From: Saccostrea echinata
Taxonomy: Eukaryota
Direction: 5' to 3'
DNA: 64,000 bases
NCBI RefSeq assembly: GCF_033153115.1
Contig: NW_026889807.1
Span: forward strand, 6,696,001 to 6,760,000
Positions 17,158-24,747 of the stretch are shown here, in pieces. Below the pieces are notes generated by a model that worked only from the letters and a program-made list of their open reading frames with translations, was not told the DNA's origin and did not search any database. Position 1 is the first letter of the stretch. Each line of letters starts with the position of its first letter. Both the position numbers and the translations under genes were made by a program.

Positions 17158-17464
17158 TAAATCAGTTATTATTATTTACAAATGATAATATCCTTTATGT
17201 GACGGAGATAAAGAAACTGTATTTGTTTTATTTGTTTTAATTTAATTTTGATGTGACATGATTGTATTTTGGTAATTGTTGTAATTTTGTTTGGTGTTTA
17301 CAAACTATTTATCTCGGGATCAATTGCCTATTTTTGATCGATGACACCATTGTCTTAATATACAGCCAATCAGCGTGGCTTCTCCCAATCACGTGACCAT
17401 TGTTTATTTATTTACCAGAGGAAAAAGCCACGCTAAATTGCAAGGGAAAATTTTGTCGAAAAAA
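17158..17464 (+). repeat. Split direct repeat A1
   Basis: 307 bp, nearly identical to 24055-24361 (two substitutions seen). Confidence 0.95.
17363..17398 (+). promoter_or_regulatory. Probable internal Pol II promoter in repeat A: two CCAAT boxes plus E-box TCACGTGA
   Basis: AGCCAATCAGCGTGGCTTCTCCCAATCACGTGACC. Confidence 0.55.
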
Positions 17465-17616
17465 AACGCATTTCCAGTTGGTTCTACGTAAATTATGTAG
17501 TGCTACAGTTTCCGTCCCTTGCTGTGATCATTTATTAACGTGAAGTGCCAGATATTTCACAACAGGAAAGGAGTTTCACTACATTTTTCAGTAAGTGACT
17601 TGAGTTTGTTTATGTA

Positions 17617-18279
17617 ATGGTGCGCGATCCGGTTTGGAGAGAACTGTGTCACAACATGGACGAGCCGAATTTACTCAGAATCTGTTTACTTGGACATTCT
17701 TTCGTGACTCGTTTACGGCGGTATATGGACTCACATCCTGATTTAGTGAATTTAAAGCTACACCATAGACTTTATAGTGTTTCAGTGCGGGCTCGTGGTG
17801 GTTTACGGATCTCTAGCATTGCTCGTTCCAGAGACTTGTTGACTTTTGATGTGTTGCCACACATATGCTTCATGCAGATTGGGGAGAATGACATTCTGTT
17901 GAATAGTGACGAAGTGATTGTGCGTGATATTTTATCATTAGCGTCTTATCTGCATTCGGGTGTGGGCATACGAACAGTCATTGTAGGCCAGCTTCTACGC
18001 CGCCAGCCTTGGGCTTCGTCTTCGGACTTCAACGATCGCATCGTCGCCATCAACGTTATGCTAAAAGAACAGTGTGCAGCTATGAACGGTGTACATTTCT
18101 GGCCTCATAGAGGCTTCTGGGAAGACTTGACATTCCTGTGCCATGACGGGGTACATCTCCGATGCCCTACCCCATCTCCTCTTGTTGTGACCGCCTCTCC
18201 TATGCATCGTTTTTGGCGAAGTGTTCGCTCAGCTATCTTACATCATAGACACATTTCAGGCCAGTATCATTCTGCTTAA
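17617..18279 (+). CDS. SGNH/GDSL-family hydrolase ORF of the Ngaro element (220 aa)
   Basis: Block I LLGHSF, block II RGG, block III QIGEND, block V DGVH; uninterrupted ORF. Confidence 0.85.
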   Translation: MVRDPVWRELCHNMDEPNLLRICLLGHSFVTRLRRYMDSHPDLVNLKLHHRLYSVSVRARGGLRISSIARSRDLLTFDVLPHICFMQIGENDILLNSDEVIVRDILSLASYLHSGVGIRTVIVGQLLRRQPWASSSDFNDRIVAINVMLKEQCAAMNGVHFWPHRGFWEDLTFLCHDGVHLRCPTPSPLVVTASPMHRFWRSVRSAILHHRHISGQYHSA

Positions 18280-18640
18280 GTCTGCTTGTCTGACCTTGTT
18301 TTTCAATTGCTTTACATATATATGACCATATTCTGTAACTAAGTACATTCAGGGATGTATTTCAATATAAATGTTCTATTTAAATAATGCACCTCCATAT
18401 TCTGAGACCATAACTATGGTCTACTTAAGTCATTGAGTGCATGCATCACATTCTGTCATAGGCTTTAATGTCAAATGCTTTATGTGTTTCATCAAACTTA
18501 CTGATGATTATTAGACATTCAGTTTGTTTTTTGTGGTCAATGAACAACATAAATACAGCTTACATAAACTTTATTGGAGTAGGCATTTATTAACTCCTAT
18601 ATGTTTGACTGGTTTATATACTTTGTAAGCAATTTCTCTT

Positions 18641-19150
18641 TGTATTGTGGGACCATACACATTACATAATGCTTACGGTTGATGTTGCGGGACCATACGC
18701 TTCATCTTGTATGAGTATATAATTGTATGTGCATTTTCTTTTGGTGCGGGACCATACCACCAAAGACATGCTCATTTGGTTGTTGTATTGTGGGACCATA
18801 CACCTTACACAACTGTTTTCATGACCGTACTCCAATTCGCAGTCTGTTGTTGTTTGATGTTGCGGGACCATACGCATTATCATTTTATGACTGTACATGA
18901 ATTGGTAGTTTGTTTTTGTTAGATGTTGTGGGAACATATGCAATATCATCATACTATGAAAGATATACTATATTACATTCCATATGCATTTTTCTTTAGT
19001 GCAGGATCATGTGCACCTTATCTGTACTATTTCAATATTTATTCTGGTGGTGATTCATCCACATAAGACACTACTGTTTACTCGACAGTATTTTTATACA
19101 CTCTATAAAATATGGTTATATATTCAACTGTTGCGGGACCACACACAACA
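18641..19150 (+). repeat. Array of 8 stem-loops with 8-nt GGACCATA-type loops
   Basis: Hairpins at 18641-18666, 18681-18706, 18737-18766, 18779-18813, 18855-18882, 18922-18947, 18999-19016 and 19129-19150. Stem sequences differ but stay paired. Confidence 0.85.
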
Positions 19151-19554
19151 TCCTTGTAATCATCATATGTACATACAATATATTTCACTAAGGTATGGCT
19201 TCAGGTCTTTGTAACCTTCTAATTTGTTTAACTAGCTGAAAATTTTAAATCTTAAAATTGGGTCAGACAAGCTTCAGATTCTCCTTTGGTGTTGTTCTGT
19301 TTTCAGCTACTTTTCAGGTATAATGATAAAAATTGTATAAAAATTTATACCTCATTCTTTAGCCATAATCTGTATTATGTAGCATTGAGGCTGTATATGT
19401 TTATTTTGTGTCCAAGGCTATATATATACATATACATGTGTATATAAATATTTATATATCTGTGTTTCTACTGAGCCCTTTGGGACATTTCAGTATCATT
19501 CAATGAATAATTATTAATTGTGTTCATTATGCTTTATTGTCCAGGTGTACAGCC

Positions 19555-20637
19555 ATGCCTCCAAAGAGGGGACAGAAGTCCTCAGGTGCTACAACAGCCA
19601 AAAAGCGAAGGGCAGTCCAACCGACAGAAGGAAGTCAAGCCATATCACTAGACCTGCCGCCTGTGGGACCACCTGCTCAAAACAATGGACTCACAAACAT
19701 TGACTATGACAAATTAGCTGTGGCAATTCTAAAGCACTCACAAGGGCACAATGGGCTAAACGTTCCAACTCAGGAGGCCCCTTCAGTGCCAGGACCTACG
19801 TCCCACTCAGCTGACACATCACCAAAACCTACAGCAGATCCACAACCACCTTCAGTTCCAGGTCCTTCATCTCTGCAACCAACAAACAGTGTGTCAAGTT
19901 CAACGCCATTGTTGGGGGATCTGTTAGATCAAGTTTTTGCAGGTGAGCCAGCAAGGGCAACTGATCTTCCTTACTCATCTACTATTGTTAGTGATGGCAT
20001 TCCCCTTTGGTCTTCAGTTTCTAGCAAACTTAAGACAAAAATTTGGAATAATGAATTCATTGACTTTCGATCCCTACAAAATACAAGGGAAGAACCTTTG
20101 AGTGTTTCGATTTCCACTGGGGTCATAAAATTGCACCAAAGTCCAAAATTCAAAAGCCCCATAAGTATTTCCCAATGGACAGATGCTTTCTTTTTGTTTG
20201 CAGCAGTGTACATTGAAAAGTACCCTGCTGAAGCCCCCAATCTTTTAAAGTATGGGCACATGGTAAGGGAAATTCAACAACTTCATGGGGACAATGCATT
20301 TCGTTCATATGATGAGCAGTTTCGAAAGTTAAAAGAAACTGTTAATGTACCTTGGCAGCAACCTATTCAGGAATTAAGGCTGAGGGCAGCCACACTCTCA
20401 AAAGCTTTCCCTCCCAAACAATCACAGAATAATCAAACCCAGCCCTTTCGCATCAAGTTTTGTTTTCAATACAACAGAGGGGAACGTTGTAGTAAAAACC
20501 CCTGTCCCTTTCGTCACATCTGCATGCAATGCAGAGGAAACCATCCCAAGTCCAAATGCACAGATTCTTCCAAGCCCAGTATGCAGAATTCACACTCAAG
20601 AACTCCCAACTCCAATCAAAGTAAAAAATCTGCTTGA
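19555..20637 (+). CDS. gag: Ngaro gag-like ORF1 with C-terminal CCCH and C-x2-C-x3-H-x4-C zinc fingers
   Basis: GCCATG start MPPKRGQK, Pro/Ser-rich linker, KIWNNEFIDF and W..AF..F motifs, CFQYNRGERCSKNPCPFRHICMQCRGNHPKSKC. Confidence 0.85.
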   Translation: MPPKRGQKSSGATTAKKRRAVQPTEGSQAISLDLPPVGPPAQNNGLTNIDYDKLAVAILKHSQGHNGLNVPTQEAPSVPGPTSHSADTSPKPTADPQPPSVPGPSSLQPTNSVSSSTPLLGDLLDQVFAGEPARATDLPYSSTIVSDGIPLWSSVSSKLKTKIWNNEFIDFRSLQNTREEPLSVSISTGVIKLHQSPKFKSPISISQWTDAFFLFAAVYIEKYPAEAPNLLKYGHMVREIQQLHGDNAFRSYDEQFRKLKETVNVPWQQPIQELRLRAATLSKAFPPKQSQNNQTQPFRIKFCFQYNRGERCSKNPCPFRHICMQCRGNHPKSKCTDSSKPSMQNSHSRTPNSNQSKKSA

Positions 20638-22177
20638 AATCCTGCAAGCTTATGACAAAGACAAACTTTTAGTTATCAAAAATGGATTCACCTATGGTTT
20701 TCACTTAGGTTGTAGTGGTATACCAAGCTCAAAAATATCTAGGAATCATAAAAGTGCACTTGAACATAGTTCTGTTATACAGGAATTCATTAATAGTGGT
20801 ATTGAATCAGGGAGAATAGCTGTACCCTTCCCCTCTACACCATTTTCCCAGTTTGTATCTTCTCCTTTAGGAGTTGTTCCTAAATCAGACCCTGGTAAAT
20901 TCCGAGTTATACACGATCTCTCTTTTCCAAAACATAATTCAGTCAACTTTATGATCCCTGAAGAAAATTCAAAAGTGAAATATGACTCTTTAGATGTTGT
21001 AACAGACCTACTTAGAAAATTTGGTCGCGGTGCATTGATGGCTAAGACAGACATTCAGGATGCTTTCCGCATAATTCCAATTCATCCTGATGATTACAAA
21101 CTCTTAGGATTTTCTTGGGACAGTAGGTTCTTCTATGATAAGTGTCTACCAATGGGTGCGAGTAGTTCGTATCAGATCTTTGAACGCCTTAGTAGTAGTT
21201 TGCAGTGGGCAATGTGTGAAAAATTTTCTGCTTCCGGAATGTCTCATATGTTAGACGATTTTTTCTTTATCGGGCCCAAGGGTTCTACTAAATGTCAAGC
21301 TGATCTTGAAAGATTCTTGTCTATTTGTGCAAAATCAGGCATACCCATCAAAGAGGAAAAAACAGTTTTTCCTACTACCGTATTAACCATATATGGGATT
21401 GAGATTGACTCGAATACATTGGTATGTCGTTTGCCTGAATCTAAACTAAACAAAGTCAGGGACAGTTTACAAGCAGCAAAACGTAGAAAGAAAATTACTT
21501 TACATAACCTACAATCTTTGATAGGATTGTTAAATTTCGCTTGTTTAGTTGTTGTTCCAGGTCGAACCTTTTTGCGTCGCCTCATTGATTTAACATGTGG
21601 GGTCTCCAACCCTAATCATTTCATCCGCCTAACTTGTGAGGCAAGAGCGGACTTGCATATGTGGTCACATTTTGTAGAATCTTATAATGGCAGGTCAGTT
21701 ATACTTCCTGATGTTTGGTCATCTTCCGATAAAGAATTGTTATTTACTGACGCATCAGGCTCATTGGGTTTTGCGGCAGTTTTGGGGACCAACTGGTTTG
21801 CATTAAGTTGGGAGGAAGTTCTAGATTTAGCACAATACCAGATAGCCATTAAAGAGTTGTTACCCATTGTGTTAGCACTGGAAATCTGGGGTCCTGCTTT
21901 AGCCAACAAAAAGCTCCTATTCATGACCGACAACATGGCCATAGTACATGCCATTAATAAACAGACTTGTAAAGACAAAATTCTCATGAATTTGATTCGC
22001 AGATTAGTTCTAACAGCACTTTCACACAACATCCTTTTCAAAGCTAAACATATTCCAGGCAAAACAAATACTCTGGCAGATCATCTTTCATGATTTAAAT
22101 TGCAGGAAGCCTTCCAGATAGCCCCTCATCTCAGTCCTGTACAGACAGAAGTTCCCAAGGACCTCTTAACAATTTGA
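20384..22177 (+). CDS. pol: Ngaro pol (RT + RNase H), no initiating AUG, one premature TGA at 22091-22093
   Basis: Frame is open from 20384: TPIK..NGF..NHKSA..GRIA.PF..SPLGVVPK..FRVIHDLS, KTDIQDAFR, LPMG, MLDDF, FTDASG, TDN. ADHLS* continues in frame as FKLQEAF..LLTI* to 22177. Confidence 0.88.
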
Positions 22178-23082
22178 ATCCAGTCTGCATGAAACTACTA
22201 GAATCTGCTCTCTCATCATCAACCTCAAAAGTTTATCGCCGAAGTTGGAATTTGCTCCTCAAATGGAAACCTGACATATCACTTCCAGTCTCAGTGACAG
22301 ATGTTTGTAACTTCATAGGCCATTTATTTCTTCAAAATTACTCACCCAGTACAATTTTTTCCCACATTTCAGCTATCAGTTTCATTCACAAGTTATGTAG
22401 TATCTCAGACCCTACTCAAGCCTTTGTGACCAAAAAAATTCTTAAAGGGTGTCAAGCTGTAGGCTCAAGGAGGGACACACGCCTGCCTATCACAGCAACT
22501 ATCTTACAGAAACTCATTGCAGCCTTAGAACACACTGTGTCTCAGTATTCACTCAGACTTCTTTTGCAAGCACTTTTCTTGGTAGCCTTTCATGCTTTTC
22601 TGAGATTAGGGGAAATAACAGCGAAATCAGTTAAAGCTACGAATTGTATTTTACAGAGGTCTGACATCACATTCAAACAGGAAAACGCTTTGTTAGAGGG
22701 AGTTCAAATAATTATGAGGGATTATAAAACGAATAAACACCATGCTCCAATAATCATTTTCCTTCAAGCATGTCCCAGTTCCTTATACTGTCCAGTTAAG
22801 GCGTTGCATAAGTATCTTGCCTTGTACAAACATACATCCGGGCCATTGTTCCAGACCATGGATGGCTTGCCAATTACATACTCGGTTGCTACTTCACATC
22901 TCAAAGCAGCAATTCAGTTTATTGGACTAAGTCCGGATCAATTTAAAGGTCACAGTTTCAGAATTGGGGCAGCAACACATGCAGCCTCACTTGGTTTTTC
23001 AGACAATGTCATTCAAAAACTGGGAAGGTGGAATTCCGATGCTTTTAAGCACTACATTCGTATTAAGTCCTTTCATCTATAA
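22174..23082 (+). CDS. Tyrosine recombinase (first ATG 22189)
   Basis: Catalytic motifs FLRLGE (R), YKTN (K), HSFRIG (H-x-x-R), GRW and HYIR (Y); intact. Confidence 0.93.
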   Translation: MNPVCMKLLESALSSSTSKVYRRSWNLLLKWKPDISLPVSVTDVCNFIGHLFLQNYSPSTIFSHISAISFIHKLCSISDPTQAFVTKKILKGCQAVGSRRDTRLPITATILQKLIAALEHTVSQYSLRLLLQALFLVAFHAFLRLGEITAKSVKATNCILQRSDITFKQENALLEGVQIIMRDYKTNKHHAPIIIFLQACPSSLYCPVKALHKYLALYKHTSGPLFQTMDGLPITYSVATSHLKAAIQFIGLSPDQFKGHSFRIGAATHAASLGFSDNVIQKLGRWNSDAFKHYIRIKSFHL

Positions 23083-23161
23083 GTAATTGACATGCTCAAA
23101 TTTTTAGTGCATACCCCGGTGTAGCCCCCCAAAACATACATATGTGTAAGAAAAACTTTTA

Positions 23162-23409
23162 GACAGGTCAGAAGTTTTCTGCTGTCACAAATAACCACAT
23201 AGACTTTGTAGGGCAGGACAGAAGTTATCTGCTGCCCTTTATCAAGCATTTGTATATAGGAGACAGGTCAGAAGTTTTCTGCTGTCTTTCAATCCCTGGT
23301 CAGATCCTGTTCCATACACATATTTTTGGGTACACGGCAGGTCAGAAGTTTTCTGCTGCCTGAAAGTTATTGTTTTCAACATGTCAGGTCAGAAGTCTTC
23401 TGCTGACAT
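23162..23409 (+). repeat. Array of 5 bulged hairpins, core CAG-GT-CAGAAGTTTTCTG-CTG
   Basis: Copies at 23162-23186, 23210-23238, 23259-23289, 23336-23360 and 23381-23409, with covarying outer stems. Confidence 0.88.
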
Positions 23410-23761: not shown

Positions 23762-24059
23762 GCGTTCATTTTGTTTTATCCCACCCTTTTTTGATGGCAC
23801 GCATATCAGTGCCTGCTTTATGGTATGTTTATTTTAAAGGGGGTCAGTTTGCATAATATGATGCCAAAGATTTTTGTGTTCTTAGAAGTTTTTCTAGTCT
23901 CTCTGACTCCCTTACTATGTGTATTTTTGTTTTGCGTCATTTACTTAAATAAATGACATTTTTTCACTTTCAACACTGTTGTTATTTTCTTCTATCCATC
24001 AAAAAACTAGCTCAGTTGACTTGGCTTCAGACTTGCAACAATAACAAAGGAACATAAAT
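23762..24059 (+). repeat. Split direct repeat B1
   Basis: 298 bp; matches 24450-24747 (one substitution seen). Confidence 0.95.
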
Positions 24060-24361
24060 CAGTTATTATTATTTACAAATGATAATATCCTTTATGTGAC
24101 GGAGATAAAGAAACTGTATTTGTTTTATTTGTTTTAATTTAATTTTGATGTGACATGATTGTATTTTGGTAATTGTTGTAATTTTGTTTGATGTTTACAA
24201 ACTATTTATCTCGGGATCAATTGCCTATTTTTAATCGATGACACCATTGTCTTAATATACAGCCAATCAGCGTGGCTTCTCCCAATCACGTGACCATTGT
24301 TTATTTATTTACCAGAGGAAAAAGCCACGCTAAATTGCAAGGGAAAATTTTGTCGAAAAAA
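24055..24361 (+). repeat. Split direct repeat A2
   Basis: Copy of A1, joined to B1 through TAAAT. Confidence 0.95.
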
Positions 24362-24449: not shown

Positions 24450-24747
24450 GCGTTCATTTTGTTTTATCCCACCCTTTTTTGATGGCACGCATATCAGTGC
24501 CTGCTTTATGGTATGTTTATTTTAAAGGGGGTCAGTTTGCATAATATGATGCCAAAGATTTTTGTGTTCTTAGAAGTTTTTCTAGTCTCTCTGACCCCCT
24601 TACTATGTGTATTTTTGTTTTGCGTCATTTACTTAAATAAATGACATTTTTTCACTTTCAACACTGTTGTTATTTTCTTCTATCCATCAAAAAACTAGCT
24701 CAGTTGACTTGGCTTCAGACTTGCAACAATAACAAAGGAACATAAAT
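24450..24747 (+). repeat. Split direct repeat B2
   Basis: Copy of B1; ends the element. Confidence 0.95.

Follow-up and report, generated by a model that had tools for sequence, protein, structure and literature searches.

A frame-bound UUU_CGN motif in the gag-pol overlap of Ngaro retrotransposons from Saccostrea echinata and related elements suggests PA-X-type +1 ribosomal frameshifting

The 64,000 nt of Saccostrea echinata DNA analyzed here (hereafter the window) contain a Ngaro tyrosine-recombinase retrotransposon, whose features are collected in Table 1. In the available parts of two descriptions, the Ngaro superfamily of the order DIRS is defined by gag, reverse transcriptase/RNase H (RT/RH) and tyrosine recombinase (YR) genes, by split direct repeats in the arrangement A1..B1-A2-B2 and by the lack of a methyltransferase domain (PMC9210276; PMC3266345). 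The window element presents the same ORFs in the order gag, RT/RNase H, YR and the same repeats A1...B1 A2 B2, with 95 nt between A2 and B2. A Dam methyltransferase match was detected neither in its pol nor elsewhere in the window, which is not among the eight Dam hits. Gag, for which no Pfam match was obtained, was called by its position and its zinc finger. Conserved pol sequence begins at ~20603, and the window copy of pol carries an in-frame TGA at 22091, 28 codons before the pol end of copy L002. Short-repeat arrays are present before gag (18639-19152, GCGGGACCATAC-like units) and behind YR (23147-23405, five copies of CAGGTCAGAAGTTTTCTGCTG-like units). The ORF between A1 and gag is putatively SGNH-hydrolase-like by its motifs; a hydrolase-like ORF is placed after YR in the Ngaro descriptions, as far as their available parts go, whereas it precedes gag here. 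Relatives of the element were not found among viral contigs.

Table 1. Features of the Ngaro element in the window (positions refer to the window).
Feature	Position	Strand	Remarks
Split direct repeat A1	17158..17457	+	99% identical to A2
226-aa ORF	17599..18279	+	Inside the element, between A1 and gag; no Pfam hit
gag	19555..20637 (ORF from 19507)	+	360 aa; zinc finger region of the CCCH/CCHC type at the C-terminus
GT..AG intron, 2163 nt	19943..22105	+	Joint 19942 -> 22106 (aligned at 19936 to 22100, cut +6) in contigs from two studies (X1, X2, X5)
pol frame (RT, RNase H)	20384..22093	+	+1 relative to gag; RVT_1 and RT_RNaseH Pfam matches
Site 1, CCC_UUU_CGC	20443..20451	+	Gag frame; predicted +1 shift site; QPFR context, before the finger
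Acceptor-like stretch TTTTCAATACAACAG	20457..20477	+	Would put the 19942 donor in frame with pol; joint unseen
Site 2, CCC_UUU_CGU_C	20506..20515	+	Gag frame, inside the CCCH finger; unconserved
Tyrosine recombinase (YR) frame	22099..23082	+	Phage_integrase match; same frame as gag
Split direct repeat B1	23762..24059	+	100% identical to B2
Split direct repeat A2	24055..24354	+	99% identical to A1
Split direct repeat B2	24450..24747	+	100% identical to B1

The original prediction held that pol, open in the +1 frame long before its conserved sequence starts, has no AUG of its own and may be reached by a slip at one of two motifs in the gag frame. The frames and the letters of both motifs are as it described, and the first pol-frame ATG (20951), which it had placed inside the RT domain, indeed lies downstream of the invariant RT motifs SPxGxVxK and RxIHDLSxP in the pol alignment. 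One model for this prediction is the PA-X gene of influenza A virus, in which tRNA-Phe leaves UUU and re-pairs with UUC in +1 while CGU occupies the A site (Firth 2012, PMC3498833). As had been claimed, a UUU to UUC slip leads into the pol frame at site 1 as well as at site 2; a -2 shift was rejected, as CCC_UUU would allow no re-pairing. The window element alone is weak evidence for the motif, because TTT_CGN also occurs outside the overlap in its own gag: all five Phe-Arg pairs are encoded by TTT_CGN, three of these outside the overlap. A further argument, the persistence of CG-containing Arg codons in a CpG-poor ORF, was correct in its premise (CpG observed/expected of 0.25 in gag vs 0.78 in the whole window) but is weak, given these three pairs and 7 CGN codons among the 17 Arg codons. 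The case for a shift site therefore rests on the relatives of the element. Among these, the motif type of site 1 is conserved in 52 of 62 families from the source genome and a metagenome taken together, while TTT_CGN at the site-2 position inside the finger is found in the window family only (1 of 60). Of the two proposed shift sites, site 2 was thus rejected as a conserved one; it may possibly provide a second chance to shift.

In the 923-Mb source genome, 150 of 815 candidates were scored, and the best 30 together with 60 of the other 120, hand-picked for distinctness, were used and grouped into 41 families at 75% pol identity. Four families without a usable copy and six with an upstream ORF of less than 200 codons were left out of the counts; all six of the latter carry the motif. 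Of the 31 families whose upstream ORF is long, 30 have pol in +1 relative to gag; the copy that represents the remaining one is broken, and its relatives L040-L042 show +1 with AGT_TTT_CGT. Within the overlap, the pentamer TTTCG, which is the most widespread gag-frame 5-mer, is in phase with gag in 26 of the 30 families, in the pol frame in none and in the third frame in one, counts that overstate independence as the families are related by descent. Shuffling of the overlap codons (2000 runs) yielded a mean of 2.4 and a maximum of 7 families. Codon choice points the same way: TTT_CGN encodes 30 of the 37 Phe-Arg pairs of the overlap vs 11 of 33 in the rest of gag (Fisher p 8e-5) and 18 of 61 in pol, and the other Phe codons of the overlap prefer TTC (58:38) and the other Arg codons AGR. 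Stop counts behind the motif are circular; for a blind test, the final TTTCG in the gag frame was picked with no regard to the pol frame, which proved to be open from there in 26 of the 30 families, with 1.8 expected. The four misses are L075, in which the motif is present with a stop behind it and whose relative L079 is open, the L047 family, with CCC_TTT_CAG instead of TTT_CGN, and L069 and L085, with a +1 overlap and no usable UUU_C site. The non-motif representatives L039 and L075 are broken copies whose relatives have the motif. In the sister families L069, L074 and L085, which share the +1 overlap without a UUU_C site, gag ends in CAC TAA or TTC TAA, and L069 has no pol-frame ATG before the RT. 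The finger region of gag and pol lie in one frame in L028, L078 and L082, apparently owing to single-base indels in decayed copies.

The same pattern was obtained with an independent set of elements that are 36-51% identical in pol. A metagenome scan confirmed at least 309 relatives (24 of 64 parts scanned), of which 80 were analyzed; they form 56 families, 35 of them usable, with pol in +1 in 32, in frame in two and in -1 in one. TTTCG is located in the gag frame in 26 of the 32 +1 families, in the pol frame in none and in the third frame in three (codon shuffles: mean 5.0, maximum 12), and Phe-Arg pairs are TTT_CGN in 28 of 41 cases inside the overlap and 12 of 34 outside. The retention of TTT_CGN, rather than TTC or AGR, across Ngaro gags had been put forward as the check on the prediction, and it is observed in both sets (26/30 and 26/32). 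Exceptions are L164 and L168 (TTT_CAG), L165 (TTT_CCN) and L200, L201 and L216, which have a +1 overlap without a usable UUU_C site; together with the L047 family, four exceptions keep UUU_C with another A-site codon. In both sets combined, the phase of the motif relative to the codons of gag is 52:0:4 (gag:pol:third frame).

This phase bears on a further reading, in which the motif acts as a nucleic-acid signal with no part in decoding, such as one for packaging or protein binding, or marks slippage during transcription. The motif is short, is conserved as a string of nucleotides and at times sits in longer T runs (TTT_TTT_CGT in PAT-like elements, see below), which would suit such a signal; a non-coding signal would have no need, however, to keep to the gag frame. 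For polymerase slippage, three T are too few, and a one-base deletion at the site does not appear among the indel rows listed. We regard this as the least probable of the explanations considered.

The position of the motif within gag is variable. It precedes the finger in 36 families, follows it in 14 (4 from the source genome, 10 from the metagenome) and lies within it in one, as labeled by a regular expression that wrongly sets L182 to 'after' and under which L202 and L203 lie at the finger. In a tree of 61 pol sequences, which took in no named reference elements, well-supported branches force at least five changes of the 'before' state and at least seven of the 'after' state. The motif is found both before and after the finger and is therefore not a structural peptide. 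For the same reason, the loss of the zinc fingers, which the original prediction expected of a fusion made at the first site and which would apply to the window family and most others, is not the purpose of the shift, as the motif follows the finger in 14 families. The distance to the start of pol likewise varies from 26 to 83 codons, amid unconserved sequence. A signal that moves while its frame and its codons stay constant fits a putative recoding site, not a peptide. Regarding its immediate context, most families have CCC, CCU or AAU in the E site and few have TCC (1/26 source-genome and 2/26 metagenome families), the A-site codon is CGU in 18-22 of 26 source-genome and 18 of 26 metagenome families, and the next base is often G. 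CCC and CAG codons are favored upstream of the motif, with CAG two codons before it in 14 of 26 families; this CAG was considered as a splice acceptor and rejected, since it would be in the wrong frame with the phase-1 donor described below and no such joint was seen. A 3' stimulatory RNA structure was not detected in any of four folded 100-nt stretches (z of -0.6, 1.8, 0.2 and 0.5).

An alternative combines two elements: pol might be self-initiated from an upstream AUG, a near-cognate codon or by internal entry, and TTT_CGN might reflect a protein constraint acting in two frames (FR in Gag, F-V/A in Pol). The favored CCC and CAG codons would agree with such a constraint, but the shifting position relative to finger and pol start amid unconserved sequence disagrees with it, as does the conserved upstream YDExFR pair, for which synonymous codons are used freely. 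As to initiation, at least one ATG of the pol frame does occur in the overlap of 21 of the 26 motif-bearing families of the source genome, and in the L004 family one lies right behind the stop; the claim that pol has no AUG is hence true of the window element and does not hold in general. The density of these ATG codons is, however, that expected by chance (0.025 per codon in the pol frame vs 0.024 in the third frame), and none precedes the conserved start in 5 of 26 source-genome and 7 of 32 metagenome families, including that of the window. This alternative is considered very unlikely.

Evidence at the level of RNA was sought in five public contig sets that contain the element. These are assembled contigs that are only guessed to be RNA, as none is recorded as such, and their depth was not used; their GT..AG joints suggest that they derive from RNA. 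One X1 contig spans 19914-22129 without a joint and thus covers the overlap unspliced. Once the intron listed in Table 1 is removed, the whole of pol is missing and the first 129 codons of gag are linked in frame, at codon 130, to YR, so the joints support a Gag-YR fusion at the RNA level. The phase-1 donor is kept in the nine nearest families and the YR acceptor context in six of the seven examined, namely those with an intact 3' part. In L010, L013, L016 and L021, the YR frame has no ATG near its start. In a second family (L239), an X2 contig runs unbroken from a spliced leader through gag, pol and YR; a joint from the gag donor to YR is not listed among its contigs, and the contigs of two runs of one sample stop where the donor is predicted, a hint at most. 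Other joints, from 17590 and ~18259, reach an acceptor at 19545, ten bases upstream of the gag ATG. The latter uses a GC donor (AG|GCCAGT), a donor type also seen in L239 at 2087; a fusion of the upstream ORF to gag through the 18259 -> 19545 joint was rejected because the gag frame is not entered. Contigs of sample S1 skip 70 nt (22314-22383) with the non-canonical ends CA..TC, which probably represents a deleted genomic copy.

Since splicing from 19942 does occur, pol could also be expressed from a minor spliced RNA that joins this donor to an acceptor in the overlap (e.g., 20477/20478) and encodes an N-terminal part of Gag fused to Pol, with the motif being incidental. An acceptor-like site in the right phase is present in the window element and in five of the nine nearest families. 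The original prediction named a spliced pol mRNA supplying an AUG as a competing outcome, but a joint into the pol frame was not found in the contigs of either family, with the proviso that assembly drops rare forms and a minor spliced pol RNA could be missed. Moreover, the site at 20477 falls on the codons for the C-F-x-Y/F-N-R-G of the finger, the excess of acceptor-like sites in the pol phase over phase 0 is slight (21 vs 15 and 28 vs 25), and a G|GTRAG donor is absent from gag in 16 of the 30 source-genome families, most of which have the motif. Splicing would also leave the tie of the pentamer to the gag frame unexplained. This route is judged improbable, if somewhat less so than the two preceding alternatives.

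The frame-specific conservation across families supports the PA-X-type reading, and we put at roughly 85% the probability that programmed +1 frameshifting, in the window element at site 1, yields the Ngaro RT in the form of a Gag-Pol fusion. Ribosomes would read gag from the ATG at 19555 and stall when UUU is paired with tRNA-Phe and a CGN codon occupies the A site. A small fraction would re-pair on UUC and enter the pol frame behind residue 298 of Gag, ahead of the zinc finger, with a predicted junction of ...QTQPF followed by ASSFVF... in the pol frame. Most ribosomes would complete the 360-aa Gag, resulting in a low Pol:Gag ratio, and the recombinase would likely be made from a second, spliced RNA lacking pol. 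Here, the slip itself and its rate are what we infer from the comparison of sequences.

The proposed site can be compared with several known systems. It resembles the UCC_UUU_CGU of influenza A PA-X in its UUU_C in the P site, CGN in the A site, direction of +1 and location inside an ORF overlap. It differs in its E-site codon, which is only rarely UCC and is CCC at site 1, in its product, a retroelement polymerase instead of an accessory protein, and in that the Ngaro slip is deduced from sequence comparison. According to the available part of the PA-X study, the UCC is stimulatory and not required, the change to UUC_AGA abolishes the shift, an E-site CCC lowers it without eliminating it, and the roles of the A-site and E-site codons in the mechanism are uncertain (PMC3498833). 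UCC also lies outside the consensus UUU_CGN of amalgaviruses, in a work, available in part, that quotes a shift rate of 1-2% for the influenza site (PMC5052127). In these viruses, UUU_CGN links ORF1 to the RdRp, a fusion of a structural protein to a polymerase made at a low rate and with few exceptions, and the evidence is comparative, of the same kind as for Ngaro (Nibert 2016, PMC5052127). Amalgaviruses are dsRNA viruses of plants, whereas Ngaro elements are genomic retrotransposons. The yeast retrotransposons Ty1 and Ty3 shift at the heptamers CUU_AGG_C and GCG_AGU_U. They share with the Ngaro elements a +1 shift between gag and pol (Atkins 2016, PMC5009743) and differ in these heptamers and in being LTR elements with a DDE integrase. 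In its available part, the same review covers 51 animal retroelements, just two of which have pol in +1, and makes no mention of DIRS or Ngaro (PMC5009743), and no gag-pol shift site for Ngaro is given in the available parts of PMC9210276 and PMC3266345. Frameshifting has been suggested for YR by Poulter and Butler (2015), as quoted in part of PMC13003380, in contrast to the window element, where YR is spliced to gag. A UUU_CG site in elements of the DIRS order was not found in the literature searched, which also covered the available parts of PMC3783388, PMC8547959, PMC6681497, PMC7192593, PMC9341512 and bioRxiv 10.1101/2022.06.16.496473, with Poulter and Butler (2015) outside its scope. A known recoding motif is thus present, as a real and strongly conserved signal, in an element class for which the searched literature holds no description of it.

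Two other groups of the DIRS order were included from the same genome. Using Dam-domain hits as seeds, 50 PAT-like and 50 DIRS1-like loci were collected, labels that we assume from these hits and from features of gag. The PAT-like elements (L099-L114), with a CCHC gag and a methyltransferase, form 24 families, eight of them usable, of which seven are in +1 and one in -1. Five of the seven +1 families have TTT_CGT (shuffle mean 0.7, maximum 4), in some cases inside longer T runs such as TTT_TTT_CGT. The DIRS1-like elements (L137-L151, L261-L276) mostly mirror this pattern: 15 of 19 usable families (26 in total) are in -1, and 14 of these 15 have an X_XXY_YYZ slippery heptamer (shuffle mean 4.5, maximum 10), either T_TTT_TTA (five families) or of the A_AAA_AAC type, with the gag tail 'FLG' encoding the site. 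Of the four families in +1, at least one is a broken copy of a -1 family. It seems fairly probable that the DIRS order as a whole follows a common, as yet undescribed grammar of expression, in which Ngaro and PAT-like elements would use +1 UUU_CGN, DIRS1-like elements -1 heptamers (U_UUU_UUA, A_AAA_AAC) and one Ngaro clade a retrovirus-like gag splice for YR, the site having been lost and rebuilt elsewhere several times.

If this order-wide reading is true, YR retrotransposons would outnumber every other known group that uses the PA-X motif in animal genomes, and their sites would amount to a natural library of motif variants. The motif is known from few viruses and genes, and dozens of diverged natural sites would be added, showing which positions are fixed (UUU_CG), which are preferred (CGU followed by G, a C-rich E site) and which are free. 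The UUU_CAG and UUU_CCN variants (L047, L049, L056, L164, L168 and L165) would be useful for addressing the role of the A-site codon. The AUG-poor pol frame of a whole superfamily would be given an exact and testable site. Annotation would be corrected as well, since Pol would in truth be fused to Gag and an ORF opened at its first ATG would not represent it. Shifting in +1 between gag and pol, earlier thought to be rare, is predicted to be common in animal genomes.
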